NCBI GenBank assembly: GCA_009839975.1
Contig: VXOP01000167.1
Span: 185 to 64,184 of the forward strand
Direction: 5' to 3'
Source of the DNA: Candidatus Poribacteria bacterium
Lineage (GTDB): Bacteria > Poribacteria > WGA-4E > WGA-3G
DNA length: 64,000 nt
Shown: positions 1-58,180 of the stretch, one piece after another
Numbering within the stretch: the first letter of the stretch is position 1
Layout: every line of letters starts with the position of its first letter
Translations under genes and position numbers: made by a program
Notes under the pieces: model-generated
Seen by the model: the letters and a program-made list of their open reading frames with translations, nothing else
What the model was told of the DNA's origin: nothing
The model's database searches: none

Positions 1-269
1 CCGAAAATTGCATACATTTAAGGGGTTTGAAATTGACGGTAACTTTCCAGAAATTAACAGAATCAATAGGTGGTTGCGCGTAAAACCTCTTTTGTGTCTC
101 ATTCGTCAAGAAAAGGTACGTGATTTAAGACGGATATTACGCTTGCCACCTTTGTTTTCCATTTTCCTGTTAATTGATCGGAGTGGTGAAGAATTGAGTA
201 TCGTGTTTTCAAAAGACGCGCTATTGCTGCGTTCTCAACCTTATATTTGGAGAAAGGTGAAGAATTCTA

Positions 270-3239
270 ATGGTTGAACAACTTGAACTTGATTTTATGG
301 GAATCTCAGACGATTCTCAAGAACCGCAGCGGCTCCATGCACAAATTGCTTTGCTGGAAAACGCTGTTGATCCATCTGATTTTGTGTTAATGGATTACAT
401 TGATAAAGTGATGCCGCAGATGTTTGAAGCGTATACGCTTAAGCCAGCGAAAGGGAGCACTGAATGGGAATACAATCATGACCAGAGTATGCTCGCTCAT
501 ATTCTAAACGGTGTCTTTCCAACGCTTACGATTGTACGAACTGCCGGGATGCAGTTGAGTGAATTAGAAGAAAGCCTATACCTGATTGCTTATTCGTTTC
601 ACGACATTGATAAACTTGTGGGGATCCGTGATTTGAGTGTCTCTGATACCGAAAAGTCTGAGCAATTTTATGCCTATCTTGACGAATGGGTTTCAAAACT
701 CCATTTTGATGAATTCCTTCCAGATTACAAAGTGTACCGCGGAGATATTGCATATCTCATTCTCAACACGCAAAAAAAATGGGGTGCTGATCTGAATTTG
801 AAGCATTTTGATTTACGTTTACAAGGACGAAGACGCCAGTATCTGCGGGAGATGTGCACAGCCTCAGACATGATTGCTTATCTGCTGAAGAATCCGAGCG
901 GATTTAAAGAACAAGCAATTGTCCGCGAATCTCTTACACAATTAAGCGGTGGGAAACTTGAACTTACCTATCACAAACTTGCTGAACATCGCGGGATGAT
1001 TACAAACGTCATTAACAACGCCTTGCTTAGAATTTTGCGTGACCGTCTCGGATGGAAACCCTTTCTCTTTTTTCCAACAGGTGTTACGTATCTGCGAGAA
1101 CGATCAAGCGAGGAAGCGATTTTACCGACGTTTGATGAAGTCGCTGAAGACACAGAAAAGCAGCTGATTGCATACTGTGCTGATCGTCTGAAAGTCAATC
1201 TTAACGGCTTCACGCGCGATGGCAAGGGATTTAAGTTTCCTGACTTCTATTATGATTTTTTTCAGATTCCGCAGTTGTTGAAACTCATCAGTATCGGATG
1301 TTTCAGGATTCTGCACGAAAACAAATCATCTTCCGCTGGAAAACGGCTACAAAAGATACTTCAACTACAAGAAAGGGGTGATATTCCGGGCAATGACACA
1401 CTTGATTTTGAAGATGACATGCGCGTTGATCAACTTGCAGAGTATCTCTATGAAATTGAGAAAAACGTTGGGGTAGTAACGAGTCGTGAGGGGGTATCTG
1501 CTGAAATCGTCAGAGTTTTGAATATGCAAGAATATCAGACCATCTTTGAAGCCATTCCACGCGACAGTAGGGTTGGTGGTGTGCCATTGCATTGGTATTT
1601 CCTTGCTGGTAAATATCTGCTGGAGAACCGTGGATTAGACACCAATCAGATGGAAGACCTGTTTACTTACATTGCTGAGAAGATTGTTACGACATTCAGG
1701 GAAGAGATTGAACAACACGAAATGGAGAAAGAAGGTTTCAGGGTTCTTCGTGAATATGTTCAGCAAATTGTTGATATTAACGGACATGGTCAGATTGAAC
1801 GCGACTTTAAATTGGAGTTAAACAGATACATCAATACGAAAAAGAAAGGGCGCGGATCAAACGCTGGATGCTCACTCTGTTCATCAACCTTTGATACTGC
1901 CAAACAGCGAGACACATCGGTTATATTTGCTAACCAAGTTTATAGCAACAAGAACTTACTCAATTCATCGATGCTTGTTCGTGGAATCTGTGAATTATGT
2001 GAAGTAGAAATGATGCTGCGCCAAATCATGATCCGATCAAAACTGAATCTGGTTGGTAGTAGATACGACGATGTAAAAATTAAGTGGCTTTATCTTTATC
2101 CGAGTTATTTCTTCACAACCGAAACTGCCAAATTTGCAGGTGATATGTACCATCGGTTGAAGAATCTCAATTTTTTTGATGTTCGCAAAGCTCTACACAA
2201 AGGGATGGCAGTAAGGGATTTCATCAACTTAGATGAGATGGTGATTGATACCGATATTCCGGATACAGACGATGATTTTCTGCTCAAAATGGAATTTGAT
2301 ACCAATGATCCTGCTACTTTCTACTTCTGTGGATTCCCTACGCTTGGGAACAGTCCTACAGATACAGAATCGTGGGCAATTCCAACTTTTCTCAGCCTCC
2401 TTATACCTTTAGTATTCAATGCCAAGGTCGTCGTTACAGAGTCGCAGGTCCCTCTTTATCATAGCGGTGAAGAGTGGAAGGAAACAGTTATTCTCAATGC
2501 GCCACCTTCTTTTGTCCATCATATACTGAGACAAGATAAACTCCGTATTGATGAGATTGAACCTGCGCTTCAAAAAGTTGCAGTGATTTATGATATGAAT
2601 GTTGACGTATTCCAAAAAGATGGAAATCCACAATGGAAATATCTTAACCAAATTGCTCGAAATATTGACACAGATCCGTTCTACGTTTTTTATTACCTGG
2701 AAGCATTTCGTCGAAAACAAAGTTGGGATAATTTCCCAAAACAACCTGACGGAGAACCGTCAATACCAGAGCGATATATACAAGCTTACCAATATGTTGG
2801 AGGTGACAAAATGAGTCTTATTGAAGAAGCAGCGAGTCGTTGCTTCAAGTTTTATGATCCTGATAATTTCAAACCTAATAGTGTATTGAAAGTTTTTACC
2901 CTTATTGAAGACGTAATCATCAACAGTGAACCGAAGATTTGTTCAGAAGACCTGAAATATCAGGTTATTGGAGAAATCCGTAATCTGATGCGACGAATTC
3001 GTCGGCCAAGCGGTGCTCGAGGGCGCCGCAGACTTAAGCGCGAAGAAGAGGCATTAGCCATTCACGAATTCGTTGAATATTTTTATCATACCGTCTTTGT
3101 AGCGTATTACGAGGACGAACGTGGTTTGCTGCGTCAAGCAAGAAACCGATTTAACGCTGGTATAAACGCCTGGTACCAGGTTAACTGGCGACAATTCCAA
3201 ACCAAAAAGGCAGAGGAGGATGTTAATGCCGATAATTGA
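270..3239 (+). CDS. cas10d: Cas10d-like CRISPR large subunit with N-terminal HD nuclease domain (type I-D)
   Basis: 989 aa. HD motifs are present near the N-terminus (EYNHDQSM, and SFHDIDK which resembles the Cas3 motif II HDxGK). There is a treble-clef-like Cys pair region (GCSLCSS...CELCEV). No GGDD cyclase motif is present, which argues against type III Cas10. It is followed directly by a Cas7 then a Cas5 gene, matching the I-D order cas10d-csc2-csc1. An RBS (GGAGAAAGG) precedes the ATG at 270. Confidence 0.55.
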   Translation: MVEQLELDFMGISDDSQEPQRLHAQIALLENAVDPSDFVLMDYIDKVMPQMFEAYTLKPAKGSTEWEYNHDQSMLAHILNGVFPTLTIVRTAGMQLSELEESLYLIAYSFHDIDKLVGIRDLSVSDTEKSEQFYAYLDEWVSKLHFDEFLPDYKVYRGDIAYLILNTQKKWGADLNLKHFDLRLQGRRRQYLREMCTASDMIAYLLKNPSGFKEQAIVRESLTQLSGGKLELTYHKLAEHRGMITNVINNALLRILRDRLGWKPFLFFPTGVTYLRERSSEEAILPTFDEVAEDTEKQLIAYCADRLKVNLNGFTRDGKGFKFPDFYYDFFQIPQLLKLISIGCFRILHENKSSSAGKRLQKILQLQERGDIPGNDTLDFEDDMRVDQLAEYLYEIEKNVGVVTSREGVSAEIVRVLNMQEYQTIFEAIPRDSRVGGVPLHWYFLAGKYLLENRGLDTNQMEDLFTYIAEKIVTTFREEIEQHEMEKEGFRVLREYVQQIVDINGHGQIERDFKLELNRYINTKKKGRGSNAGCSLCSSTFDTAKQRDTSVIFANQVYSNKNLLNSSMLVRGICELCEVEMMLRQIMIRSKLNLVGSRYDDVKIKWLYLYPSYFFTTETAKFAGDMYHRLKNLNFFDVRKALHKGMAVRDFINLDEMVIDTDIPDTDDDFLLKMEFDTNDPATFYFCGFPTLGNSPTDTESWAIPTFLSLLIPLVFNAKVVVTESQVPLYHSGEEWKETVILNAPPSFVHHILRQDKLRIDEIEPALQKVAVIYDMNVDVFQKDGNPQWKYLNQIARNIDTDPFYVFYYLEAFRRKQSWDNFPKQPDGEPSIPERYIQAYQYVGGDKMSLIEEAASRCFKFYDPDNFKPNSVLKVFTLIEDVIINSEPKICSEDLKYQVIGEIRNLMRRIRRPSGARGRRRLKREEEALAIHEFVEYFYHTVFVAYYEDERGLLRQARNRFNAGINAWYQVNWRQFQTKKAEEDVNADN

Positions 3240-4233
3240 TTTTCCGAAAGAAATTGTTCCCGAAGGATGTTTTTTAGATCAAATACCGAAAGCACCAACA
3301 GGACGTTATGCCCATCTGATTTTCGTTCGTGAAACGGAGTCGTTTCCTATTTTTCAGACAGATGGTACACTCAACATTACAAAGGTCAGTGCAGGGTTGC
3401 ACAGTGACAATTCGCTTATTCGACTTGCTATGTTCAAACGAAAACAGAGTTCACCGGAACGACTTACGGGACGTGAGTTACTGCGCCGAATGAATATTAC
3501 ACAGAATGAAGATAGCGACGGAGATGACTACTGTGATTACAATGAAAATTTCTGCGGTACCTGTCCCGACTGTGTTTACTACGGTTTCGCTATCGCAGAC
3601 TCAGGCTCCGAAAAATCAAAGGTGTATGTTGATACTGCTTGCTCAATTACAGGGTACGACGAATCACATCAACAGTTTTCATTTAATGCCCTCTATGAAA
3701 AAGGGAACATGAGTCAGTACGGTGACGTTCGCTCAAGTTTTGGTGAACAGGACCACATCGTGCCACAAGTGTTTTTCCCGTCTGTTATTACGATTAAGGA
3801 TGTGACAGTACACAGTTTCACCTATGTCTTGAATAACGTATTGCGAACGAAACGTTACGGCGCACAGACAACGCGAACAGGACGACTTTCTAATCATATT
3901 GTCGGTGTTGTATTTGCTGATGGTGAGATTTTTTCAAATCTTAAATTCACACAAGCTATCCATGATGGATTGGGTGAGGACAAGAATGAAATCCCGTTGA
4001 ATCCTACAAAAGTTCTTCAAACTGCTCAAAATACCTTGTCTGCGCTTTTGGAAGATGATGGTGTGATTTATCACCTACTCAATAGAGAAAATCTAAAACA
4101 ACTACTTGCTATTGTCAAATCTGTGACGAGAGATGAAGAAAAACTCCAGCTTTTCTTGCAGGAGGCAAACACCGAAACACAAGAATACGCCGCGCGAGTC
4201 ATCCAAAAGGCATCAAACAAGAAGCAAAAGTAG
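3226..4233 (+). CDS. csc2: Cas7d/Csc2 Cascade backbone subunit with Zn-finger
   Basis: About 335 aa. The CxxC..CxxC cluster (CDYNENFCGTCPDCVYYGF) is typical of I-D/I-B Cas7. The gene overlaps the cas10d stop, which suggests translational coupling. The start is taken at the second ATG, 6 nt after GAGGAGG. The ORF track uses 3220. Confidence 0.55.
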   Translation: MPIIDFPKEIVPEGCFLDQIPKAPTGRYAHLIFVRETESFPIFQTDGTLNITKVSAGLHSDNSLIRLAMFKRKQSSPERLTGRELLRRMNITQNEDSDGDDYCDYNENFCGTCPDCVYYGFAIADSGSEKSKVYVDTACSITGYDESHQQFSFNALYEKGNMSQYGDVRSSFGEQDHIVPQVFFPSVITIKDVTVHSFTYVLNNVLRTKRYGAQTTRTGRLSNHIVGVVFADGEIFSNLKFTQAIHDGLGEDKNEIPLNPTKVLQTAQNTLSALLEDDGVIYHLLNRENLKQLLAIVKSVTRDEEKLQLFLQEANTETQEYAARVIQKASNKKQK

Positions 4234-4242
4234 GAGGAACCG

Positions 4243-4926
4243 ATGCAAGTTACGAAATGTCATCTTACACTGCACGATTTTCTCTTCTATGCGACGCGTG
4301 AGATGGGACGACTTTACGAGACTGAAAAGGTTATACACAATTGGGCGTTGACTTATGCACTCGGTTTGGTTCAGAAACCGCATAGATCGTTTAACAGCGT
4401 TCCTACCTATCAGGATGACCTAACACCAATCAATGCGGCAGGTGTTTATGTTACACCTGCCAAACCTATCCACTATGATTATGTCATCAGTACATTCAAA
4501 CTGGCAGACAATCGGCATCGTCCGTTCTCAACTGTGAGCAACACACGAAAAAAAGAGTTAGGAATAAAGGTGACGAATAAACCTTCATTCGGTAAAGCAA
4601 AAGAACTTGCCCCAGGTAGTCTTTTTGAGTTTTTCATTGTCGGTGATTTACCCGACAAACTCCCAAAATGGATAAGGTTAGGTATATGGATGAGCAAAGC
4701 AGGGATTGAGATTAAAGATACGAAATTCTTAACACCAAAGAACGGGGCTTTTACGTGTTCACACCTTCTGAACCCAATAGATCTCGCAATTTCATCAGAG
4801 TTCTACGATCTCATTTCAATGCCGCCGGTGAGTTTACTACAGAACGCACGATTTAACGGTGAATATGTTGAATTCGGTAATGTTTGTTTGCCGACATCCA
4901 TGGCATACTTTGCCAGTGTAATATAA
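4243..4926 (+). CDS. csc1: Cas5d/Csc1 Cascade subunit
   Basis: 227 aa RAMP-like protein with a Gly-rich segment (PSFGKAKELAPGS) and a C-terminal RLGIWMSKAGIE strand. AGGAGGA RBS. It sits immediately after csc2. Confidence 0.45.
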   Translation: MQVTKCHLTLHDFLFYATREMGRLYETEKVIHNWALTYALGLVQKPHRSFNSVPTYQDDLTPINAAGVYVTPAKPIHYDYVISTFKLADNRHRPFSTVSNTRKKELGIKVTNKPSFGKAKELAPGSLFEFFIVGDLPDKLPKWIRLGIWMSKAGIEIKDTKFLTPKNGAFTCSHLLNPIDLAISSEFYDLISMPPVSLLQNARFNGEYVEFGNVCLPTSMAYFASVI

Positions 4927-4972
4927 GGAGACGGGTGTGTAAAATTTTTGTAGAAGAATACAGGTAAAACTT

Positions 4973-5038
4973 GTAGGAGCGATCTCCGAATCGCGACCTG
5001 TCGGGAATTGGCCAGATATATGTTAACTGGCCTCCTAC
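4973..5038. repeat. Structured dispersed repeat family A, copy 1 (66 nt)
   Basis: gtaggagcgatctccgaatcgcgacc...tcgggaattggccagatatatgttaactggcctcctac. The 7-bp ends are inverted repeats (gtaggag/ctcctac). It has internal stems gcgat/atcgc and ggccag/ctggcc. It is near-identical to the copy at 53289-53366. Confidence 0.7.
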
Positions 5039-5048
5039 TAAAGATTCT

Positions 5049-5075
5049 GTAGGAGCGATCTCCGAATCGCGACCT
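5049..5075. repeat. Family A partial copy (5' 27 nt only)
   Basis: gtaggagcgatctccgaatcgcgacct is repeated 76 bp after copy 1. Confidence 0.7.
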
Positions 5076-5123
5076 ACTCAAATATGGAAAACATATTGAT
5101 TCAGCGCATTAGTAAAAAAAAAC

Positions 5124-5152
5124 TTGACAAACAGTCGTACATCGTGTATGAT
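5124..5152 (+). promoter_or_regulatory. Consensus sigma70-type promoter (TTGACA-17-TATGAT)
   Basis: TTGACA at 5124-5129, a 17-nt spacer, TATGAT at 5147-5152. It sits in the non-coding region downstream of csc1. A second TATAAT lies at 5206-5211. Confidence 0.5.
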
Positions 5153-5159
5153 ATATATC

Positions 5160-5358
5160 GTGTACAATATAGATATACCAATTAGTAAAAAACTAAAAGG
5201 TATGCTATAATGTTCCCAGGTGAGAGTTACCCAAGCATTGTTAGAGTTTAGGGGGGACAGAGGTTCCAATTCTGTCTTGCTTGTTATCAACCTGCCAATT
5301 TAACAATGAATTACCCTACTACAAATTCGCGGTGTAGTAGGGTAATTCATTTTCTGTG
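5160..5358 (+). ncRNA. Candidate small RNA of about 200 nt, promoter to terminator, with a possible 13-codon micro-ORF
   Basis: A predicted TSS about 7 nt after the -10 box. The transcript ends at a 16-bp perfect hairpin plus U-tract at 5308-5358. It contains ATG TTC CCA GGT GAG ... AGA GTT TAG (13 codons) after an AAAGG. No ORF of 60 aa or more is present. Confidence 0.3.
5308..5358 (+). terminator. Rho-independent terminator
   Basis: gaattaccctactaca-aattcgcgg-tgtagtagggtaattc is a 16-bp perfect stem. It is followed by ATTTTCTGTG. Confidence 0.55.
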
Positions 5359-5658
5359 TCAACGCTTGAGATGGTTTTCACTTTTTAATCATCATTGCTG
5401 TGTTCCAGGATTCCCAATTGGTAATTTTTCAGATTGCTCTTTATAGGCTGTGACTGGATTCGTCTGTCTGAAAATTTACCAATTTTACCAATTACGATTC
5501 TGTTAAAAGACTATACCCGCAAAATTAGGGCGGACACTCTACTATTTGAAGTAACCTTACATTCTGCTAAGGTTATCAACTATGGGAAATAGTTCTATTT
5601 CAGGTATCTTCAGCACCAGCGGTGCTTGGGGTTTGACGGTATGTGTTTTCTACAATTT

Positions 5659-5783
5659 CTGTAAACATATCGTCCTTACCAAATCAACGCCAAATGCGCG
5701 TTTGGCATTTGGTGAGACTAAAGAGAGGGTGTGAACGTTTATCTATAAACATATCGTCCCTATCACTTTTTCTTGACTAAATC
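5659..5783 (+). repeat. Two degenerate copies of the CRISPR-like repeat family B, with hairpin arms disrupted
   Basis: ctgtaaacatatcgtcc[40-nt insert]gactaaagagag at 5659-5727, and ctataaacatatcgtcccta[tcactttttctt]gactaaatc at 5743-5783. These match the 5' and 3' parts of the family B consensus ctataaacatatcgtccctacgggactaaag seen at 58.0-58.2 kb. Confidence 0.55.
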
Positions 5784-5933
5784 TTGTATAGTCTGTTACA
5801 ATTGGGATGAGGTTGGCTATAGAAAACCTACGTCTCTGTTATATATAGAGCCAAATCCATGAATAAGCAGCACTATTAACGAGTATGATAATAACGACCA
5901 AAACAACCGATAACTAAATATCCCTATAATCCA

Positions 5934-7850
5934 ATGGGAATAAGTGTATATTTTATGAGATATGCTATCCTCTTTTTCATTGCGGTGACGTTTCTACCGC
6001 TGCAGAGTTCCGGCCAATACGCGACAACATTGGGATTACCCAAAGGGGCAAAACTACGCATCGGTAAAGGAAGTATACGAGATATAGCCTATTCACCAGA
6101 TGGCACAAAGTTCGCTGTCGCAAGTAGTATTGGTATTTGGTTATATGATACCAAGACTTATCAAGAGATCTCTCTGCTTATAGGGGATATGAGTTCGGGA
6201 AATAATATATTGTTTAGTCCAGATGGACAGGCACTTGCAAGTGGATGGGACGACGCTACCTTACGAATTTGGGATACCAATACGGGTGAGCAACGATATG
6301 CCATCAAAGCATATACAGATGATATGTCATTTAGTCCGGATGGACAAATACTCGCAAGTTGTGGTCATGACCGCAAAATACATTTATGGCAAGTAAAAAC
6401 AGGTAAACACATTCGAACGTTCATTGGACATGCGAGGTCAGTGTGCAGCGTATCATTTAGTCCGGATGGACAAACACTCGCAAGTGGCAGTCATGACAAT
6501 ACAATTCGTCTATGGCAAGTAAAAACGGGTGAACACATTCGAACGTTCACTGGACATGAGAAATCGGTTCGCAGCATATTGTTTAGTGCGGATGGACAGA
6601 CACTCGTAAGTTGCGGTGAGGATGAAACTGTCCGATTTTGGAATACGAAAACCGGACAGCAAATCAGCAACACTAATGTCGGTTATACAGGTTTCTTTTA
6701 TCCTTTAGTTTTCAGTCTGGATGGACAGACGCTTGCAAGTTCTGATAGGAATACTATCGCCTTATGGGATACCAACACGAATGAACGTATCCACAATTTT
6801 CCGGTAGATACGGATCCTACGTTTACAGAGTATACCTCTAATCTACGTAGTGTATCATTTAGTCCTGATGGACAGACAATCGCAGGTGGTTATGCACACG
6901 CTATCCGTTTGTGGAACATAAAGACAAGGAGACACATCCGTACGATTAGAGGGTATACGGATTCTGTCTACAGCGTATCTTTTAGTTCCGATGGGCAGAA
7001 ACTCGCAGTTGGTAGCCATGGCCTACCTATCCGTTTGTGGAACACAAAAACAGGTGAATACATTTGCACGATTAAGGGGAGTTCACGACACGTATCATTT
7101 ACGCCTGATGGGCAAACGCTGGCAGGTGTTATTTATATGCATCTCCATTTATGGGAAACAACCAGAGGAGAACTCCTCCGATCATTTACGGGGAATACAG
7201 CCATTTACAGTTTTGGTTGTTTTGCATTCAGTCCAAATGGACAGACAATTGCGAATGGGAGCTCAGAGACGATCCATTTGCGGAACGCAACCACAGGGGA
7301 ACACATTCGCTCGCTCACAGGACATACGGATTCAGTGCGTAGCATTGCGTTTAGTCCGGATGGAAACTTACTTGCAAGTGGTGGGCAAAATACGATCCCA
7401 AGAGTAGCAGATGACGAATTAGGTGAAACAACTGTTCACTTATGGGATCCACATACTGGTGAACACCTACATTTACTCACAGCTCAGAAGTCAGATGTAA
7501 TTTTTGACTTATCGTTTAGTCCGGATGGACAGACCCTTGCCAGCTCAGACATTGCGGTCCGATTATGGAATACGAAGACAGCCGAACTGCTCCACACACT
7601 CACCGGGCATACAGGCTGGGTAAAAAGTATATCGTTCCATCCTACGAATGGACAACTCCTCGCCAGCGGGAGTGGTGACTCAACGATACGTTTATGGCAT
7701 GTAAATACAGGCACACACCTAAAGACGCTTACTGGACATACGAGAGGTATCGAAAGCATTTCATTTAGTCCGGATGGACAAGTACTTGCAACAGCAAGTC
7801 TTGATGGCACAGTGCTATTGTGGGATATAGCATCTTTAGATAAACCCTAA
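5934..7850 (+). CDS. WD40-repeat protein with N-terminal signal peptide
   Basis: A dozen or more repeats of the FSPDGQTLASG...IRLW type. Hydrophobic N-terminus. The start is uncertain between 5934 and 5955. Confidence 0.8.
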   Translation: MGISVYFMRYAILFFIAVTFLPLQSSGQYATTLGLPKGAKLRIGKGSIRDIAYSPDGTKFAVASSIGIWLYDTKTYQEISLLIGDMSSGNNILFSPDGQALASGWDDATLRIWDTNTGEQRYAIKAYTDDMSFSPDGQILASCGHDRKIHLWQVKTGKHIRTFIGHARSVCSVSFSPDGQTLASGSHDNTIRLWQVKTGEHIRTFTGHEKSVRSILFSADGQTLVSCGEDETVRFWNTKTGQQISNTNVGYTGFFYPLVFSLDGQTLASSDRNTIALWDTNTNERIHNFPVDTDPTFTEYTSNLRSVSFSPDGQTIAGGYAHAIRLWNIKTRRHIRTIRGYTDSVYSVSFSSDGQKLAVGSHGLPIRLWNTKTGEYICTIKGSSRHVSFTPDGQTLAGVIYMHLHLWETTRGELLRSFTGNTAIYSFGCFAFSPNGQTIANGSSETIHLRNATTGEHIRSLTGHTDSVRSIAFSPDGNLLASGGQNTIPRVADDELGETTVHLWDPHTGEHLHLLTAQKSDVIFDLSFSPDGQTLASSDIAVRLWNTKTAELLHTLTGHTGWVKSISFHPTNGQLLASGSGDSTIRLWHVNTGTHLKTLTGHTRGIESISFSPDGQVLATASLDGTVLLWDIASLDKP

Positions 7851-7954
7851 TATCACTATAGATGGACAGACGATTAGGAGTTACGTTATTCCTGTGGTGC
7901 AAAAGCGTCCTTCAGGCGAGGGGCAGGGGAAAGGGGACAATCCTTGAAACGCAT

Positions 7955-10411
7955 CTACCGATTTTCTCCGTATTCAGGTTCTATCGCTGGACGGACTACC
8001 CATTCCGAGAAAACAGATTTAAATGACTTTGCCTTCTCTCCAAAATGCAGATATTGGATACTATTCACAGGAATGGAAATTTCTCCATAGATGGACGAAT
8101 TTCCGTACAATCTCTCACCCCTTACCTCAATAGGTTCGAATATCAAGATCGGGTTATGGATCAAAGCGATGCGAACAAGTGAAACGTTTGATTCGCTGTT
8201 GTCTGCTGGGGAAGAAATTGGGTCCTGATCAGTTGCGATCTCATCAGAAGGTATTTCATCGGATGGGTCTTCCCGTTCTGTTGCCTGAACATCACTAATA
8301 TCAATGATACGTGCAACCCTGTTGAGAGGAATGATAGATTTTCGCATCTTTGCTTCAAACTGAATTGTCTCTCCATTAAATCCAGTTAGTTTCCCCCGTT
8401 TTAGATCGCCATTGTTTGCTACCAGTATATGTTTCGGTGGATTCTCACGGTTGAATCGAGGTATGGTCAGTGCGCGTTCTACTTTCACATCCAACTTTTC
8501 GGGTTGGATTTCAAGCGGGTCAAACAGTAGGTCAACGCCGTGCTTTAGCGCGACGGCTTGGTTTGCAGCAAAGTCCCCTCCGAATGTGACTTTCAGCGGA
8601 TTTTCACCAGCATCACCCGTTTCTACGATGATCTGCAGCATCCCATTTTCTGCTTTTTGCATTGTAGCTTCCAAAATCCGTCCATCCTCTAAGATGATAC
8701 GATGTTTATTACCTCCTGTAATTGTGATCGGATTCCGGTTTTCTTTCCTACCCTGAGTCTTTCCAAGTGAAAACTCAATGGCTTTCATGTGCGTTGATGC
8801 AATGCGCGCTGCACTAATGAATGGAGACCGAAAATTGATGTTATCCTTATCATAAGACAGAACATTACACGGGATGACCTCACCATTTTTCAGATGCAAT
8901 AGATGCGGATACAAGGTAACATCGTAAGGCTGTAACCTTGATACACGTTTACTATGCCGTTCTATACGAGGTGAACGTTCGTCTGCAAAACGTACCGGTG
9001 CCGATACGCCTGTCGGTTGCCACGTTATACTGAATTCATTTTTACTACCAAATATGATCTTGCCTTGTAGACTACCATCAGGGAAAAACATCCTATCATA
9101 GTCTTCCGTAGGCTTTTCGGAATTGGTTGTAGAATTAAACCTGAGTAAGGAAGCACCATCAAGTGAACAGGTTAACGGTTCATCAGCATAGTCCGTTTTT
9201 AATACGGCACCAGTGGCGGTTAAATCCAGTATCTCTCCTTGTACAACACCGCCGTCAACATAAGACAGTGTTGAGACATCATCTGTCGTTGATAACACCA
9301 TCCCCGGTTGAACAACACGATCTATTTGATCTAAACTGATCTCACTTCGTTCGCCATCCGTATCAAGGACATATCCTTTTCCCCGCTTTAGTCTGTCTAC
9401 GAACAACTTGCCATGAAAGACTTCTCCATTCATCATGTGAACACGTTGTTTTGAAAAATCGACCTTCTGATTTCTGAATTTTGCGTGCTGTCGGTATACC
9501 CTTAATCTCCGCACTGTAAGTTCCTGTCCACGATTATAGATGTAGATACCGGTTGTATTGACGGTAGGACTGACATTTTTCAGTTCCAAGAGCGGGTTTC
9601 CGTTTATATCAAAAATCTCTAACATTCCTGTCGTTTGGTCGTAGGCGAGTCGTAGACTGAAGTTACGACGATCAGGTTCAATTGTCATTATCGGTTCAAA
9701 TATTGTTCCTTGAACGACAACGAGTTCGTTAACCCATGTCTCTAAACGCAATGCCTCATATAGGTTTTTACCGAGTGAGAAGACAAAGCCTGGGGGACGT
9801 GAGGTAGATCCCAATTCTAAACTAATCTCAAACCGTTCGGGCCACGCGATTCCGTAAAAGATGTTGGCTTTACTCTTATCGGTCTGTGGATGTCCGGCTT
9901 GATTAGCATACCATCCTGTCTGGGGTTCTTCCCATGATGATAATTGAGAGCCATCAAAGAGTAAATTTGAATGTTCCCGACTTTCAAGCGAATAGATGGA
10001 TGATCTGTTCACCCTAAACTTACCAAAACGTTTGTTGGAAAAAAGATAGGTGTTTTCATCTGAATCGATAATATCAGCAGTCCACACATCTCCTGATACA
10101 GTGGCTATGCGAAATGTGCCTTGTGATGATTCAGTTTCTTTGGAGAAAACAATTGAATCCAATACACTTTTATCTATCTCTAACGCATCTGAGAAGTAAG
10201 GTGATTGCCAACGGATTTTTCCCGAATTACTTTTTAATAGTTTACCAGCAAGGGAGTCACCGTTTTTCCAACGTAAGAGTTCTTCGGCTTCTATGCTATA
10301 GTGCAACTGGAATGTTGCGATCACAACAGTAATTGCTAATATCCACTTTAGGTATCTTTGCATTGTGTTTTTCCTATTTGAAATATTTGGGGTATATTCT
10401 CTATCTCTCAT
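7955..10411 (-). CDS. Large hypothetical secreted or membrane-anchored protein (818 aa)
   Basis: N-terminal signal anchor (YLKWILAITVVIATF). No recognisable catalytic motif. Its start is coupled (TAGATG) to the stop of the upstream gene. Confidence 0.5.
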   Translation of the reverse strand: MRDREYTPNISNRKNTMQRYLKWILAITVVIATFQLHYSIEAEELLRWKNGDSLAGKLLKSNSGKIRWQSPYFSDALEIDKSVLDSIVFSKETESSQGTFRIATVSGDVWTADIIDSDENTYLFSNKRFGKFRVNRSSIYSLESREHSNLLFDGSQLSSWEEPQTGWYANQAGHPQTDKSKANIFYGIAWPERFEISLELGSTSRPPGFVFSLGKNLYEALRLETWVNELVVVQGTIFEPIMTIEPDRRNFSLRLAYDQTTGMLEIFDINGNPLLELKNVSPTVNTTGIYIYNRGQELTVRRLRVYRQHAKFRNQKVDFSKQRVHMMNGEVFHGKLFVDRLKRGKGYVLDTDGERSEISLDQIDRVVQPGMVLSTTDDVSTLSYVDGGVVQGEILDLTATGAVLKTDYADEPLTCSLDGASLLRFNSTTNSEKPTEDYDRMFFPDGSLQGKIIFGSKNEFSITWQPTGVSAPVRFADERSPRIERHSKRVSRLQPYDVTLYPHLLHLKNGEVIPCNVLSYDKDNINFRSPFISAARIASTHMKAIEFSLGKTQGRKENRNPITITGGNKHRIILEDGRILEATMQKAENGMLQIIVETGDAGENPLKVTFGGDFAANQAVALKHGVDLLFDPLEIQPEKLDVKVERALTIPRFNRENPPKHILVANNGDLKRGKLTGFNGETIQFEAKMRKSIIPLNRVARIIDISDVQATEREDPSDEIPSDEIATDQDPISSPADNSESNVSLVRIALIHNPILIFEPIEVRGERLYGNSSIYGEISIPVNSIQYLHFGEKAKSFKSVFSEWVVRPAIEPEYGENR

Positions 10412-14092: not shown

Positions 14093-14341
14093 GAGTATAA
14101 AATTTCGCTTGCACTTAACTTCAATATAGCGTATTTTAAGGTGGAAGACACGATAAATTCTGTTTTAATCCTTTTATTTTACTTGCAACATTTTTGAAGA
14201 TTGTGTTAAACTAATGAAAATTGCCACAAATGAGTCAAAATGTTAGCAAAATCTCAATATTTAATGGAGATTACAAAATAGAAGAGAAATGTGGTAAACT
14301 GTAGCGTCAAGTCACCCTTTCTGTCTGAGGAGACGTCCACG

Positions 14342-16231
14342 ATGAACGATAAGGATAAGTATAGCAAAGTTGGTGGAAACCACTACGATAGTAAATCTGT
14401 CAAAGATAAGGATCAGTTGGAATTTGATGAAGATTCAGAAAATGAAGATGAGGAGACGAATGCCAACTATTCTCAGCGGCGAACAGACCGCAGTCGATAC
14501 GATAACAAATACATTGAAGACGATGATGGGTTTGAGTTTGATTTAGATGAAGAGGTCGATGAAAATGAAGCCAGTTCAGGTTATTCACTCCGCCTTATTC
14601 GTATGATCATCTCGGAAACACCTGTTGAGGATTTTAGACGTCGGTATCTGCTTGAATTGCGTCGTTCTATTATCAACGACGAAGGTGAATTTCGTCAAAG
14701 ATTACGTGCTATTGAACAGGAAGCAATTCGCATTCATAAAGAGATGGAAGAGCAGATAGAGGCACTAACTGCTCCTGCCAACCGTATCGGAACGCTCCTT
14801 GACACCCCCAAAGACGATACTGCGCGCGTCACCGTTGGTGGTGCTGAATACTATGCTAATGTGGACCCACAGTTGGAATCGGGTAACCTCAAAAAAGGAG
14901 TGAGTGTGCTTCTCAATGAAGCCTTTGTTGTTGTTGGCGAACTCGGCTATAATGAATCGGGTCCGATTGCTAAGATTTCTGATATTCTTCCGGATGGCAG
15001 GCTTCGTGTCGGGTCTGAACCGAGTCTGCAATCTGTCATTATAGAACGCGCGACGGATCTCGTGGATGTTAAGTTGAAGTCTGGTGATGAAGTTCGACTT
15101 GATCCGAGTTTGCGGGTGGCGGTTGAATATATCGCATCCAAAGAAACGAAAGATTATGCACTTGAAGCGGTTCCAGAAATCCCATGGTCAAAAGTGGGAG
15201 GACTTGATGAAACCATTCAACGAATTAAAGATACAATTGAGCAACCGATCTTACATCCAGAACTATTTAAGAAGTTTCAGTACACTGTCCCGAAAGGTTT
15301 CCTGCTCCACGGTCCTCCTGGTTGTGGTAAAACACTCATCGGAAAAGCGACAGCGTATAACCTAACTGAACGTCTCAAAACAGAATCAGGTGAAGAAATA
15401 GAAGGGACATTCCTGCACATTAAAGGTCCCGAAATTCTCAACATGTGGCTGGGTGAATCGGAACGGAAAGTCAGAGAAATTTTCTCAACAGCACGAGAAA
15501 AACGGGATGAAGGTAAACTCGCTTTTGTGTTCATTGATGAAGCAGAGTCTATTTTGGGAACACGGCGTGCAATGCGATCACACAGTATCTCTAATACACT
15601 CGTTCCCATGTTCTGTGCAGAAATGGATGGGATTGAACCGCTGCAAGAGGTTGTCATTATACTCGCTACGAACCGACCGGACTTAATTGATCCTGCTATT
15701 CTTCGTCCGGGACGTATAGACAGAAAAATTAAAGTAACGCGTCCGAATAAAGACGCTGCGAAAGATATTTTCGGTATCTATTTGACAACTGACCTTCCAA
15801 TTGAAACGGAAGAAGGTGAAACGGATGACCAAGGAATCGTTGATCAACTGATAACTGAAGTCGTGGATGAGATGTTCCGTGAATCCTCTGAAAACCGGTT
15901 CCTTGAAGTCGCACTCCGCAGCGGCAGGCGCGATATTCTCTATCGGGGGCATCTCTGCAGCGGTGCCATTATAGAATCAATCGTTCAGAGAGCAAAAGAA
16001 TCTGCAATGAAGCGTGCAATAGCAGCCCCTGATACAGATACTGGCATCACTTTAGACGACCTTATGGATTCACTTAACGCAGAATATAGCGAAAACGACA
16101 TCTTCCCGCCAACAGAGGCTACTGAAGATTGGCTCAAACTCCTTGATTATGACCCCGTGAATGTTGTCAAGGTCACACCTATTCAGGCAGAAAAAAGAGA
16201 GACACGCAAAGTATCAAGTCCAGTGATTTAG
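14342..16231 (+). CDS. mpa: Proteasome-associated AAA+ ATPase (Mpa/ARC)
   Basis: Walker A GPPGCGKTLIGKA. Walker B FVFIDEAES. An N-terminal coiled-coil region. The gene context is mpa-dop-pup-prcBA-pafA. The start is taken at the ATG at 14342 with a GAGGAG RBS. The ORF track uses 14291. Confidence 0.8.
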   Translation: MNDKDKYSKVGGNHYDSKSVKDKDQLEFDEDSENEDEETNANYSQRRTDRSRYDNKYIEDDDGFEFDLDEEVDENEASSGYSLRLIRMIISETPVEDFRRRYLLELRRSIINDEGEFRQRLRAIEQEAIRIHKEMEEQIEALTAPANRIGTLLDTPKDDTARVTVGGAEYYANVDPQLESGNLKKGVSVLLNEAFVVVGELGYNESGPIAKISDILPDGRLRVGSEPSLQSVIIERATDLVDVKLKSGDEVRLDPSLRVAVEYIASKETKDYALEAVPEIPWSKVGGLDETIQRIKDTIEQPILHPELFKKFQYTVPKGFLLHGPPGCGKTLIGKATAYNLTERLKTESGEEIEGTFLHIKGPEILNMWLGESERKVREIFSTAREKRDEGKLAFVFIDEAESILGTRRAMRSHSISNTLVPMFCAEMDGIEPLQEVVIILATNRPDLIDPAILRPGRIDRKIKVTRPNKDAAKDIFGIYLTTDLPIETEEGETDDQGIVDQLITEVVDEMFRESSENRFLEVALRSGRRDILYRGHLCSGAIIESIVQRAKESAMKRAIAAPDTDTGITLDDLMDSLNAEYSENDIFPPTEATEDWLKLLDYDPVNVVKVTPIQAEKRETRKVSSPVI

Positions 16232-16291
16232 TGCTACACCTTTACCTTGAAATAAAATCACATATTGTCCGATAAAAACAGAAAGTTACAA

Positions 16292-17812
16292 ATGATGCAT
16301 AGACTTTTTGGAATTGAAACCGAATACGGAATCACACTTGAAAACGCTGAACAGATTGATACTGTCAAGGAATCCATTGAGTTAATAAAGTGTTACCAAC
16401 GCGAGCCATTTTTACCGAAATGGGATTACAATGGTGAAGACCCTTTCAGAGATGAACGCGGTTTTCGGGCAAAACATTTAAATAACCATCCTGATGAAGT
16501 GGAGGAGGAGAAGAAGGATAAGGAAAGGTTTGCTAATCAACCTGATCGTTCCTTTCGTGAAATAAAGAGTGACCGCATCCTGATAAATGGTGCGAGACTT
16601 TACAACGACCACGCACATCCAGAGTATTCAACACCTGAATGTCAAAGTTTGTTTGACCTTGTAGCACACGATAAAGCCGGTGAACGGATACTGCAGGAAT
16701 GTGCTGAAAGACGGAGCCAAGAACTTGGTGAACGGGTTATCCTATATAAAAATAACACCGATTTTTATGGTCATAGTTACGGATGTCATGACAACTATCT
16801 AATGGACCGTGATGTGCCATTTGATTACCTCAAAATGAGCATTCTCCCGTTTTTTATTACACGGCAAATATTTGCGGGAGCGGGTAAGATAGGTATTGAG
16901 ACTGAAGCGGGACTCGCTACGCCGGGACATTTCCAACTCACACAACGTTCAGATTTTTTTCACGTAGAGGCGAGTGTGGATACAATGCACAAACGTCCTA
17001 TCGTGAACACAAGAGACGAACCGCATGCGGATCCGGCAAAATATCGTAGACTTCACGGAATCGTTGGCGATGCCAACATGTCCGAATATGCTACCGCGTT
17101 GAAGGTCGGGACAACTGCACTTGTTATTGAACTGATTGAACAACGGCTTATTCCAGAGACATGTGCCATCGCTAATCCGATTGATACCATAAAACTGATT
17201 TCGCATGACCAGACGTATCGTTGGATGTTACAGAAGGTGGATGGTAAAATGATCTCCGCGATTGATCATCAGCGCGAGTTTCTTGAAATTGCACAAAAAC
17301 ATCTTGCGAGTCAGAACAGTGAGACGGATTGGGTGTTAACACAGTGGGAACAGACGCTTGATGCACTTGAAAATGACCCGATGAACCTTACAGATAGGAT
17401 TGACTGGGTCGCAAAAAAATGGTTGTTGGAAACCTTTGTTGAATCTGAAGAAATTGAATGGGATGACCCCTGGCTCCAGAGTATTGATTTAGAATACCAT
17501 AACATCAATGTTGAGGAAGGTTTATTCTACGGATTACCGATGCAAAGAGTTGTGACGGATGAACAGATTCAGGCAGCTATGCATACACCCCCCGCAGATA
17601 CGCGGGCTTATTTCCGTGGTAAATCACTCAACAAGTTTGAAGATGCAGTCAAAACTGTTCAATGGGATAGTATCTCCTTTGACATTAAAGGGAGGACAGT
17701 GACTGTTAATATGAACTCACTTGCGAATCCGGAAATTGCACAGAAATATAATGAAGCACTTGACTTATCCCCTAATCCGCAAACCCTTGTTGAAAAGCTC
17801 GGTTTACCTTAG
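16292..17812 (+). CDS. dop: Pup deamidase/depupylase Dop
   Basis: N-terminal HRLFGIETEYG signature of the Dop/PafA carboxylate-amine ligase family. It is longer than the second paralog and has an acidic insert (EVEEEKKDKERF), consistent with the Dop loop. It lies immediately upstream of pup. Confidence 0.65.
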   Translation: MMHRLFGIETEYGITLENAEQIDTVKESIELIKCYQREPFLPKWDYNGEDPFRDERGFRAKHLNNHPDEVEEEKKDKERFANQPDRSFREIKSDRILINGARLYNDHAHPEYSTPECQSLFDLVAHDKAGERILQECAERRSQELGERVILYKNNTDFYGHSYGCHDNYLMDRDVPFDYLKMSILPFFITRQIFAGAGKIGIETEAGLATPGHFQLTQRSDFFHVEASVDTMHKRPIVNTRDEPHADPAKYRRLHGIVGDANMSEYATALKVGTTALVIELIEQRLIPETCAIANPIDTIKLISHDQTYRWMLQKVDGKMISAIDHQREFLEIAQKHLASQNSETDWVLTQWEQTLDALENDPMNLTDRIDWVAKKWLLETFVESEEIEWDDPWLQSIDLEYHNINVEEGLFYGLPMQRVVTDEQIQAAMHTPPADTRAYFRGKSLNKFEDAVKTVQWDSISFDIKGRTVTVNMNSLANPEIAQKYNEALDLSPNPQTLVEKLGLP

Positions 17813-17865
17813 CATAATGTAAACCCACAATCGCATCTAAAAGCACTTTTAAGGAGAATAAATTC

Positions 17866-18063
17866 ATGAAAGACAAAATTGTCTATTTTCCCGAACGCAA
17901 ACAGAGACCGGTAAAGCCGATAGAACCCGGTGACGGTGGCGATGATAGTAACGCGCCGAAACGTCCCGATGTCAACAGACCCGATACAAACGAACTTCTA
18001 AAACGCATGAGACGGGTTGACAAAGATCAATCGCGCCGATACCGACAAAGGACGGGAGAGTGA
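17866..18063 (+). CDS. pup: Prokaryotic ubiquitin-like protein Pup (divergent, C-terminal Gly-Glu)
   Basis: 65 aa. Basic/acidic disordered N-terminus. The C-terminus YRQRTGE resembles the canonical YVQKGG[QE]. It sits between dop and prcB and overlaps the prcB start (ATGA). AAGGAG RBS. Confidence 0.5.
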   Translation: MKDKIVYFPERKQRPVKPIEPGDGGDDSNAPKRPDVNRPDTNELLKRMRRVDKDQSRRYRQRTGE

Positions 18064-18935
18064 TGAACCATAAAGGCGACTTTCTCAGCCTTTTAAAACA
18101 TGCCGATACCTTGCAAGTTGATGGTGAACAGACTCAAGGTATTTCTGAAGTGAATGTCCCAGAATTATTACCAAGTATAAAAAAACCTATACGCGATGCT
18201 ATGGTGCTGCCCACGCAAGACAGACAAACGCATAGCACGACTTTAGCGTTAGCTGAGGCAACGACTGTTGTTGCAATGCGTTACAAGGATGGTATTATCA
18301 TTGCGGGGGATCGGCGTGCAACCGCTGGCACTTCTGTCGTTCACGACCGCGCTGAGAAAGTCATTCCTATCGACTCACACTCTGTTCTGGCAATCTCTGG
18401 TGCCCCTGCAATGGCTTTTGAGATTGCGCGTGTTCTAAAACACTCATTCCAGTATTTTCGTCGCAGCCAACTCCAAGAACTCAGTGTTGAAGGAAAACTG
18501 AGAACACTTTCACGGCTTATCCTTGATAACCTGCCAATGGCACTGCAGGGGATCGGCGCGGTGATTCCTATCTTCGCGTTGTATGCACCGCAAACTGACG
18601 AAACGGTAAACGGTGGCAAAATCTATTTCTATGACGCACTCGGTGCACACTTTGAAAACGTCGATTTCGCTACAACCGGTTCCGGTTCAGTTTGGATACG
18701 CGGTGTGCTACGTTATCTTGACAGATGGGGAGAGACACGACTTGAAGATATGGATGAACAGCAGGCAACCATCACAATTCTAAGATTGCTTGATACAGCC
18801 AGTGAGTATGATGCCGCAACAAGCGGATACAACGCAAAAGCTGAGATATTTCCTACTGTCAAAACGATTACACGACACGGCGTTGAAACACTCACCGACA
18901 AATTTCTTAATGAATGTTACGCGGAGGCTACATAA
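18060..18935 (+). CDS. prcB: 20S proteasome beta subunit PrcB with propeptide
   Basis: A propeptide followed by TTVVAMRYKDGIIIAGDRRAT (active-site Thr1 context). Ntn-hydrolase fold motifs. Confidence 0.75.
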   Translation: MMNHKGDFLSLLKHADTLQVDGEQTQGISEVNVPELLPSIKKPIRDAMVLPTQDRQTHSTTLALAEATTVVAMRYKDGIIIAGDRRATAGTSVVHDRAEKVIPIDSHSVLAISGAPAMAFEIARVLKHSFQYFRRSQLQELSVEGKLRTLSRLILDNLPMALQGIGAVIPIFALYAPQTDETVNGGKIYFYDALGAHFENVDFATTGSGSVWIRGVLRYLDRWGETRLEDMDEQQATITILRLLDTASEYDAATSGYNAKAEIFPTVKTITRHGVETLTDKFLNECYAEAT

Positions 18936-19702
18936 TGCGCGATATGCCGTATCGCTGGATTGAAGCAATTCAGGACAGGGCCGATTACATTGAAGACCAA
19001 CTTAAACCCGGAAGTCCCGTCGTAGGACTTCCTTACGCAGATGGCAGCCTACTTCTTACCGTCAGTAAAGGTGCTCAGAAAATATTTGAAGTTCATGACC
19101 GTATTGCACTTTCCGCCATCGGACATCCTGCCGATATTGAACGTCTCCGTATGCTTGTTACCGATACCGCAAGCGTTCAGGCATTTCAAAGTGCCACTGA
19201 AGATGTGAACCTACACCGGCTCACACATTATGTTTTAGCACATACCTTTAAACAAGCATTTGAATCCATTGTCGGTGAAGCGTACATCATAAAAATGTTG
19301 CTCGTGGAAATTGGCAATGGTGCCCCAGAAACACAATTTACCCATATAAACTACGACGGTAACGTGAAAGTCCAGCACGAATCTGGTGTCATCGGCGGCA
19401 CCGAAGAGATTGAAACCGCTATGCAAAACTATCTCACGGAGGCAAAAAATGATACACCACCTGACCTTGACTCTGCACTGCAGTTAGCATTGAAAACCTG
19501 GGCAGTGGGTAGAAAATTAAGCCAAAGTTTTGCGGATGCAGAAGATAGCAACGAAGTATCAGAAGACGAGATAGATGAGGTTATAAACACTGAATTAGAG
19601 GAAGGCGAAATTGAAGCCGGGATTTTAGATAATTCCTTATCAGGAGACACAAAATTCCGTCTATTGAATAAAGATGAGATAACGCGCACAATCAACAGAT
19701 GA
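18935..19702 (+). CDS. prcA: 20S proteasome alpha subunit PrcA
   Basis: Alpha-type proteasome subunit pattern (PYADGSLLLTVS...). Acidic C-terminal tail. GGAGG RBS 6 nt before the ATG at 18935 (TAATG overlap). The ORF track start is 18914. Confidence 0.7.
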   Translation: MRDMPYRWIEAIQDRADYIEDQLKPGSPVVGLPYADGSLLLTVSKGAQKIFEVHDRIALSAIGHPADIERLRMLVTDTASVQAFQSATEDVNLHRLTHYVLAHTFKQAFESIVGEAYIIKMLLVEIGNGAPETQFTHINYDGNVKVQHESGVIGGTEEIETAMQNYLTEAKNDTPPDLDSALQLALKTWAVGRKLSQSFADAEDSNEVSEDEIDEVINTELEEGEIEAGILDNSLSGDTKFRLLNKDEITRTINR

Positions 19703-19732
19703 TATTAAAAACAGTCATTAAGGAAAGATTCC

Positions 19733-53288: not shown

Positions 53289-53366
53289 GAAGTCTCTGTA
53301 GGAGCGATCTCCGAATCGCGACTTAACGTAGTGATAGTCGGGAATCGGCCAGAATTATGTTAACTG
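53289..53366. repeat. Structured dispersed repeat family A, copy 2 (78 nt)
   Basis: gtaggagcgatctccgaatcgcgact-[13-nt insert]-tcgggaatcggccagaattatgttaactggcctcctac. It has the same ends and stems as the copy at 4973-5038. Confidence 0.7.
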
Positions 53367-53426
53367 GCCTCCTACATCTCAAAATGTCCCATTAATTCCA
53401 AAGTTAACTATAATTGTATAATGTCT

Positions 53427-57906: not shown

Positions 57907-58005
57907 AAAATCCTTTCTGGTGCAAGCGTTTTGTTCCTTAAGGGTGTGTAAATATTTTGTCACCCTAATTGTCAATTTAAGAAGATAAATCCAATCAATT
58001 AGTGT

Positions 58006-58180
58006 CCTTAGTCCCGTAGGGACGCTATGTTTATAGTTCATGTTTGAACACCCGTTCTTTAGTCCCGTAGGGACGATATGTGAAAATAAGGCAATAACAT
58101 AAACATATCGTCCCTACGGGACTAAAGGAGGGGAGTCAACGCTTTTCTATAAACATTCCGTCCCTACGGGACTAAAGAGG
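58006..58180. repeat. Cluster of four CRISPR-like repeat units (family B) in two inverted pairs with 19-nt mini-spacers
   Basis: Minus-orientation units at 58006-58036 and 58056-58087. Plus-orientation units at 58097-58129 and 58147-58180. The consensus is ctataaacatatcgtccctacgggactaaag, with hairpin GTCCC-TAC-GGGAC. The spacing is 50 bp. The spacers are ttcatgtttgaacacccgt and gaggggagtcaacgctttt. Confidence 0.6.

Follow-up and report, generated by a model that had tools for sequence, protein, structure and literature searches.

A type I-D CRISPR interference module of Candidatus Poribacteria that has lost its own Cas6, adaptation genes and array and may draw on guide RNAs supplied in trans

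A 64,000-nt stretch of Candidatus Poribacteria contig VXOP01000167.1 (the window, to whose coordinates all positions refer unless another locus is named) opens with a module of type I-D genes of a CRISPR system, namely cas3′, cas10d, cas7d and cas5d. We found that none of the genes for guide processing and adaptation accompanies this module, and on balance we regard it as the interference half of a standard type I-D operon that is probably served by CRISPR RNAs (crRNAs) and a Cas6 supplied in trans from another locus. All genes of the module lie on the plus strand, in the order given below.

2–277, plus strand: 3′ end of cas3′ (type I-D helicase), 91 codons (PADLOC Cas3d, E=2.8e-8).
270–3239, plus strand: cas10d/csc3, 989 aa, large subunit with N-terminal HD (Cas3″) nuclease (TIGR03174, 4.5e-114; PADLOC Cas10_Id, 1.8e-153).
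2811–3239, plus strand: predicted internal in-frame open reading frame (ORF) for the cas11d small subunit, 142 aa, start at Met848 with GGAGG before it (from the sequence).
3220–4233, plus strand: cas7d/csc2, 337 aa, or 335 aa from the ATG at 3226 (PF18320, 2.3e-112; TIGR03157, 2e-77; PADLOC Cas7d, 1.1e-121).
4243–4926, plus strand: cas5d/csc1, 227 aa (TIGR03159, 3.9e-55; PADLOC Cas5d, 7.9e-70).

These profile matches are at equivalog level for type I-D interference genes. A preliminary description of this DNA had named HD-Cas10d, Cas7d and Cas5d as three co-oriented, tightly packed genes, and both the identities (E-values 1e-55 to 1e-153) and the packing were confirmed, with cas7d overlapping cas10d by 20 nt and cas5d following after a gap of 9 nt. 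The SFHDIDK motif and the Cys motif of Cas7d, which the same description had singled out, are indeed present, but both are family-wide: the Cas10d HD motifs match those of complete loci and align with all homologues, and the Cys4 motif C-x7-C-x2-C-x2-C occurs throughout the Cas7d family. Its suggestion that a cas3′ gene might lie upstream also proved right, as the C-terminus of Cas3d is encoded at 2–277. This fragment, truncated by the window start and by the end of the source contig, is 91% identical to residues 656–746 of Cas3′ in L056, the nearest outgroup locus, and full-length, intact cas3′ genes (698–703 aa) occupy the same position in L006, L007, L024, L059 and L060. The separate Cas3′ helicase gene of a type I-D interference module is therefore present. 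Internal translation of Cas11d is established for type I-D (PMC10212523), and it is predicted here as well: GGAGGTGACAAAATG is kept in all nine homologues whose DNA was compared, and the GGDKM start residues are found in the other four. The exact Cas10d protein is present in three NCBI metagenome-assembled genomes (MAGs) of Candidatus Poribacteria from sponges; the longest recorded contig with it measures 64,313 nt, which makes the window essentially this contig.

The preliminary description had further stated that cas6, adaptation genes and an array are missing, which holds across the whole window. No homologues of Cas6, Cas4/Cas1, Cas2 or WYL were detected in the 64 kb, the sole tblastn match being a 17-aa relic of Cas2, and tblastn with the L056 Cas6d gave nothing below E=5 against the entire window, L006, L007 and L024. 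PADLOC searches of 28 further window ORFs, small ORFs not being scanned, returned no Cas family in the top 25 of 49 families, and the PADLOC and Pfam results listed for other window ORFs included no Cas6 family. Neither Tandem Repeats Finder nor a k-mer array finder located a CRISPR array in the window. The 37-nt Poribacteria I-D repeat has no window match within 3 mismatches, and the best full-length window match to such repeats, at 14–16 mismatches in 37, equals the shuffled null. The approximately 1 kb after cas5d, described earlier as non-coding, indeed holds no conserved ORF (4927–5933); it also contains no sequence like this repeat and no ATTGAAAC handle, and an Rfam search of 1–8000 gave only a sub-threshold microRNA match, which falls on a palindrome.

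For comparison, 20 Poribacteria loci with Cas10d 57–95% identical were fetched from the genome collection, and L056 was fetched separately. Fourteen of the 20 (Cas10d 57–83%) show the order (WYL)-cas3′-cas10d-cas7d-cas5d-cas6d-cas4/cas1 fusion-cas2 together with an array of 8–70 repeats; one of these, L020, has an array but no cas4/cas1 or cas2 called. Of the remaining six, three belong to the truncated clade, two are contigs that are short or cut, and one is the disrupted locus L013. In Poribacteria, I-D repeats measure 37 nt and have a conserved 3′ half, CTCGATTACGAGATTGAAAC. L056 (Cas10d 89–91%) is complete and has 46 or more repeats; the idea that it might be a split locus was rejected, as it is a complete sister locus. 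Six assemblies (the window, L007, L059, L006, L024 and L060) carry the four genes with a common left junction and common flanks; they represent four to five diverged lineages, with synonymous divergence (dS) of 0.03–0.05 within L006/L024/L060. Cas10d identity to the window is 95% for L007, 92% for L006 and 91% for L024. The flanks consist of an XPB-like helicase and a DUF790 gene upstream, and of an 818-aa protein, a 368-aa protein (neither with a Pfam match) and a histidine kinase downstream. Since close relatives share these flanks and the same approximately 66 nt after cas5d (common to all six genomes, 88–92%), the shared flanks and junction point to one ancestral truncation. The downstream genes of the window showed no synteny with what follows the array in L056.

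The window still carries traces of what was lost, together with an insertion that lies among them.

4927–4933, plus strand: left deletion junction, still with GGAG, which complete loci use as the ribosome-binding site of cas6d (L056 alignment).
4934–5085, no strand assigned: insertion resembling a repetitive extragenic palindromic element or a miniature inverted-repeat transposable element (REP/MITE-like), where cas6d through cas2 stood (two exact 28-nt TGTAGGAGCGATCTCCGAATCGCGACCT copies).
5086–5149, plus strand: relic of the last ~21 cas2 codons, with the stop mutated to TAT (tblastn, blastn).
5124–5152, plus strand: predicted former CRISPR-leader promoter, TTGACA-17-TATGAT (promoter scan, 11 of 12 matches).

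Identity between the window and L056 continues through the cas5d stop and TAAGGAG, and breaks at about 4933. The cas2 relic, whose translation IQRISKKKLDKQSYIVY corresponds to the Cas2 C-terminus IQRIGQKKGLDKESYIV followed by the stop, accounts for the 17-aa tblastn match (5099–5146); by blastn it matches nine complete loci at the 3′ end of cas2, with E down to 8e-8. The relic is also found in L007 and L059 and is absent from L006, L024 and L060. A TTGACA/TTGATA-17-TA(G/A)AAT box, presumably the array promoter, lies across the cas2 stop in most complete loci of variant 1, some 190 nt ahead of the first repeat. Nothing resembling a leader or CRISPR repeats follows the corresponding promoter in the window. 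Because this cas2 and array-promoter fossil is present, the locus can be recognized as a deletion derivative of the standard I-D operon; judged by these scars, it is the descendant of a complete I-D operon and not a separately evolved minimal system.

The two exact TGTAGGAGCGATCTCCGAATCGCGACCT copies lie at 4972–4999 and 5048–5075, with a spacing of 76 nt; neither this pair nor the cas2 relic with its promoter had been noted in the preliminary description. A one-spacer mini-array at this site was considered and rejected, as a third copy recurs together with the intervening “spacer” sequence at 53297–53376 and the element occurs in other loci. The pair is a REP/MITE-like element, given its copies elsewhere in the window and in L006 (314–338, minus strand, and 7353–7377, plus strand), L007 (14781–14805) and L016 (7434–7458). 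The element has a partner segment, GTCGGGAAT.GGCCAGA..ATGTTAACTGGCCTCCTAC, and the insertion at 4934–5085 is strongly structured (z=−3.7). Members of the family adjoin cas2 in L056 (~18917–19053), and inverted copies flank the truncated module in L006; such an element may have mediated the deletion.

To evaluate selection or decay, we compared the six assemblies, in which the cas ORFs are free of internal stops and frameshifts over approximately 6.7 kb of coding sequence. Concatenated pairwise ratios of nonsynonymous to synonymous divergence (dN/dS) in the truncated clade ranged from 0.18 to 0.26 at dS 0.03–0.20. When branches were separated in three-taxon comparisons, dN/dS was 0.15–0.21 on the truncated lineage and 0.15–0.24 on that of the complete sister L056. 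For the flanking chromosomal genes in the same genome pairs, dN/dS was 0.05–0.35 at the same dS as the cas genes, which indicates vertical co-inheritance. The module is thus maintained by purifying selection across the clade and is not decaying, and selection in the whole clade implies that the module does something.

Combinations of I-D parts were also found in other loci. L056 (1–22967; ENA ERZ21830300 ctg716750l) contains two type I-D effector modules in tandem. The second, cas10d(978)-csc2-csc1-cas3′(742), is divergent (29–45% identical) and lacks its own cas6, adaptation genes and array; it is located directly upstream of the complete I-D locus with a DUF3800 gene between them. The L056 array has a spacing of ~80–87 nt with spacers of ~44–50 nt, which exceed those of other Poribacteria arrays (spacing 72–77) by about 10 nt. 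Variant-2 complete I-D loci have the variant-1 repeat, the repeat of L046 being identical to those of L009, L021 and L025. L066 (88–8736; Logan SRR24540797) encodes type I-B Cas8b, Cas7b and Cas5b, a 263-aa unknown protein and a Cas3 helicase, and this I-B effector is linked to a Cas4-Cas1 fusion of the same kind and to a Cas6 that shares 77% identity with the I-D Cas6d. Such sharing of repeats and Cas6 between effector types indicates that one processing and adaptation cassette has been exchanged among different effectors.

The history that best explains these findings begins in the ancestor of the clade with a deletion of cas6d, the WYL regulator, cas4/cas1 and most of cas2, where the REP/MITE-like element now stands. 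A second ancestral deletion removed the leader and the array, leaving the ~64-nt cas2 relic and the old array promoter. On this reading the four remaining genes are still functional, and their products may assemble into a Cascade-like complex on crRNAs made in trans. The likely source would be a Cas6-type processing and adaptation cassette with an array elsewhere in the same genome, for example a second, paralogous I-D locus of the type common in Poribacteria. The array would carry the same 37-nt repeat ending in the ATTGAAAC handle; a compatible repeat would end in GAGATTGAAAC and might lie, for example, in a variant-2 I-D or an I-B locus. The complex would then degrade DNA by means of the Cas10d HD nuclease and the Cas3′ helicase, as canonical I-D does. 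Because an intact and selected set of Cas3′, HD-Cas10d, Cas11d, Cas7d and Cas5d needs crRNAs, a Cas6 and an array in trans would be their most economical source. Supply of this kind appears feasible in view of the effector-only module of L056, the repeat shared by variants 1 and 2, and the Cas6 cassette of L066.

Several observations weigh against an active module that is supplied in trans. No Cas6 gene or array was found in the 64-kb window, nor within 10 kb on either side in five relatives. A search for Cas6d homologues gave 979 matches, 120 of them listed; seven clusters were looked up, with accessions for ten clusters, and these look-ups reached only other MAGs or samples (Porites lutea MAGs JAAXHL, JAAXHD and JAAXGG, MKWU01, and ENA and Logan contigs) and none of the assemblies with the truncated module that were compared with the matches (VYFZ, VXXJ, JAAXGN, JAJDZB and JAJEJA). 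The dN/dS of about 0.2 is approximately twice that of deeply diverged complete loci (0.06–0.13); this excess is probably an effect of short divergence, since the same dN/dS is seen on the branch of the closest complete sister and in the flanking genes. In L058 (6160–6768), cas7d is cut to 202 aa and cas5d is absent, at 1x coverage. In this contig (ENA ERZ25069412 ctg762176_1x_l) unrelated POTRA and peptidase M50 genes replace cas5d, and an assembly error is possible. Finally, one strain variant, seen in two same-strain assemblies (L003, ~5509–5511, and L004), has a GAA>TAA nonsense mutation by which Cas7d loses its last 16 residues; the mutation corresponds to codon 322 of the window gene (~4183–4185) and lies beyond the Csc2 Pfam domain.

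The last two of these disruptions would suit the view that the module is a non-functional remnant, orphaned by deletions, devoid of guides and heading to pseudogenisation, as would the loss of the processing and adaptation genes, regulator and array with deletion scars still visible. This view is improbable, and the selection analysis has largely refuted it already: the same junction and uninterrupted reading frames persist in six assemblies up to a dS of 0.2, the dN/dS of the module equals that of the complete sister branch and of neighbouring chromosomal genes, and the catalytic motifs and the cas11d start are intact. An apparent pseudogenisation of cas3′ in a same-strain contig (L001, 428+271 aa) was rejected as an artefact of an NNN scaffold gap.

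Another explanation is a co-opted Cascade that works without canonical crRNAs, either with a local non-canonical guide RNA or in a regulatory or addiction role, as in the CreTA-type CRISPR-repressed toxin-antitoxin RNAs that are reportedly known from haloarchaeal I-B work. The non-coding DNA after the cas2 relic contains three elements that bear on it.

5305–5351, plus strand: perfect 19-bp palindromic hairpin followed by TTTTCT, terminator-like and itself a dispersed REP (sequence).
5352–5502, no strand assigned: conserved non-coding block with a long imperfect hairpin (5409–5433 pairing with 5467–5500) and TTACCAATT motifs (alignment).
5658–5765, plus strand: two copies (5658–5681 and 5742–5765) of a dispersed repeat with the core TAAACATATCGTCCCTA (sequence comparison).

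Co-option would be compatible with selection on a module that has no local array, and with the former leader promoter, which is invariant across the window, L007 and L059, is a perfect consensus in the latter two (TTGACA-17-TATAAT), and may still be active in the window. A window-specific 16-nt tandem duplication (ATCGTGTACAATATAT, 1.9 copies) lies at 5141–5171 on the −10 box of this promoter and is missing from L007 and L059. In these three lineages, moreover, 88–98% of the columns at 5304–5502 are invariant, compared with a rough neutral estimate of ~80% at dS~0.14. This conserved stretch of about 200 nt corresponds to L007 ~15035–15243 and to the aligned part of L059 downstream of cas5d, and its conservation far exceeds that of neighbouring intergenic DNA. 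The block at 5352–5502 folds with z=−2.2 and has no conserved ORF and no Rfam match.

Against co-option stand the predicted transcript body between promoter and terminator (5159–5303), which is the least conserved part, with 46–72% invariant columns and indels, and the absence of both the conserved block and the cas2 relic from L006, L024 and L060, which keep the module equally well. Nothing in 4927–5933 resembles the lineage repeat or its handle, and the retained HD nuclease and Cas3′ are expected for ordinary interference. The preliminary description had taken 5659–5783 for degenerate CRISPR units and had proposed a CreTA-like or crRNA-like regulatory or addiction module on that basis, which did not stand up. 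Its repeat units, like both hairpins, are members of dispersed repeat families: four more copies of the TAAACATATCGTCCCTA core lie at 58017–58166 on both strands, further ones occur in other Poribacteria loci (three in L006, and in L023 and L024), and copies of the 5305–5351 palindrome lie upstream of cas3′ in L058 and L059. The units at 5658–5765 were accordingly rejected as decayed CRISPR repeats, having no similarity to the I-D repeat of the clade. What the stretch does contain is REP-like units without a handle and the fossil of cas2 and its promoter. The cluster at 58017–58166 spans the 5′ end of a 682-aa ORF (55993–58041, minus strand) and the intergenic DNA upstream of it. As annotation is concerned, REP/MITE-like repeats beside Poribacteria cas genes can mimic degenerate or mini CRISPR arrays.

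We therefore judge co-option unlikely. Its most specific form, a domesticated, array-independent I-D Cascade with a fixed target, programmed by RNA from the 5124–5152 promoter or the 5304–5502 block, is very doubtful; if it were true, it would mean regulation, addiction or self/non-self control in sponge symbionts.

As far as is known, type I-D CRISPR-associated transposons (CASTs) lack Cas3 and have an inactivated HD domain. That the module is part of such a CAST, in which a nuclease-free Cascade guides Tn7-like transposition, is extremely improbable even though I-D CASTs with reduced cas content exist (PMC9881144), as Cas3′ is present and Cas10d has intact HD motifs, the neighbouring genes scanned or called gave no Pfam match to a transposase or TniQ-like protein, and the flanks consist of conserved chromosomal genes whose divergence keeps pace with that of the cas genes.

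The remainder of the window is ordinary chromosome, with a histidine kinase, an ECF sigma factor, a Pup-proteasome cluster, a 3,137-aa TPR protein and metabolic genes; Pfam matches among the neighbours are to the WD40, histidine kinase, ECF sigma factor and Pup-proteasome genes and, beyond the window, to the XPB-like helicase and DUF790 genes. Next to the module, 1,007 nt 3′ of cas5d, lies the gene for a 638-aa WD40 protein (5934–7850), which is not at the equivalent position in L007. The Pup-proteasome cluster (14291–21193) comprises a proteasomal AAA ATPase, two Pup-ligase family genes and two proteasome subunit genes. An AAA_21 ATPase at 25213–26469 (minus strand) matches the PADLOC candidate defence protein HEC-01A at 3.2e-131, and AriA and AbiLi more weakly. 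The giant 3,137-aa protein (40316–49729, plus strand) has TPR repeats and a Laminin_G_3 domain, and presumably belongs with the eukaryote-like repeat proteins of sponge symbionts. Outside the window, the upstream XPB/ERCC3-like helicase and DUF790 pair, the latter of which we take to be a Bax1-like nuclease partner, is found at L007 2708–5412, L024 4274–7180, L059 2770–5474 and L060 4294–7068; it adjoins cas3′ in L024 and L060, and a peptidase C25-like gene intervenes in L007 and L059.

If guide RNAs are indeed supplied in trans, this clade illustrates CRISPR modularity cleanly in nature: selection has kept an interference module for long (dS ~0.2) although Cas6, the adaptation genes, the regulator and the array that once belonged to it are gone. 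In the phylum, one cassette of Cas6, Cas4-Cas1, Cas2 and repeat is combined with at least three effector modules, and the case would help in understanding redundancy and the swapping of effectors where phages and anti-CRISPRs exert pressure on sponge symbionts. The locus is an evolutionary curiosity, a known kind of partial I-D locus that does not open a new mechanism; in Poribacteria it is documented across a clade and under purifying selection.

Compared with canonical type I-D (Synechocystis sp. PCC 6803 CRISPR1; PMC10212523, structure PMC9123187), the window has the same interference genes in the same order with an intact HD motif, but lacks cas6d, cas4, cas1, cas2, the regulator and the array; what is left of the missing part is a 64-nt fossil of cas2 with the leader promoter. 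The preliminary description had called this an undescribed system, a claim that we do not uphold: the locus is a deletion derivative, and partial I-D loci are already in the literature, those of Thermofilum pendens without cas4 and cas6 and of Sulfolobus islandicus without cas2 having been proposed to be inactive or to borrow proteins or crRNA from co-resident systems (PMC10212523). The window likewise has effector genes without the full complement, whereas its loss is more complete, is clade-wide under purifying selection, and occurs in a bacterial sponge symbiont. CreTA modules resemble it in lying beside cas effector genes in non-coding DNA with repeats; unlike in CreTA, there is no crRNA-like RNA between stretches of repeat-derived sequence, the feature that defines such modules, and the nearby repeats are dispersed and not CRISPR-related. 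Type I-D CASTs (PMC9881144) share a reduced I-D cas gene set, but the window keeps Cas3′ and an intact HD, has no Tn7 genes among the neighbours scanned or called, and has vertically inherited chromosomal flanks. A parallel in the proposed mode is Marinomonas mediterranea, where a type III-B system is reported to use I-F crRNAs (PMC5576922). In both cases an array-less effector would load crRNAs processed by the Cas6 of another system; there the sharing was demonstrated by experiment, whereas here it is suggested by the conservation of the module and by Cas6 and repeat cassettes that extend across I-D variant 1, I-D variant 2 and I-B.

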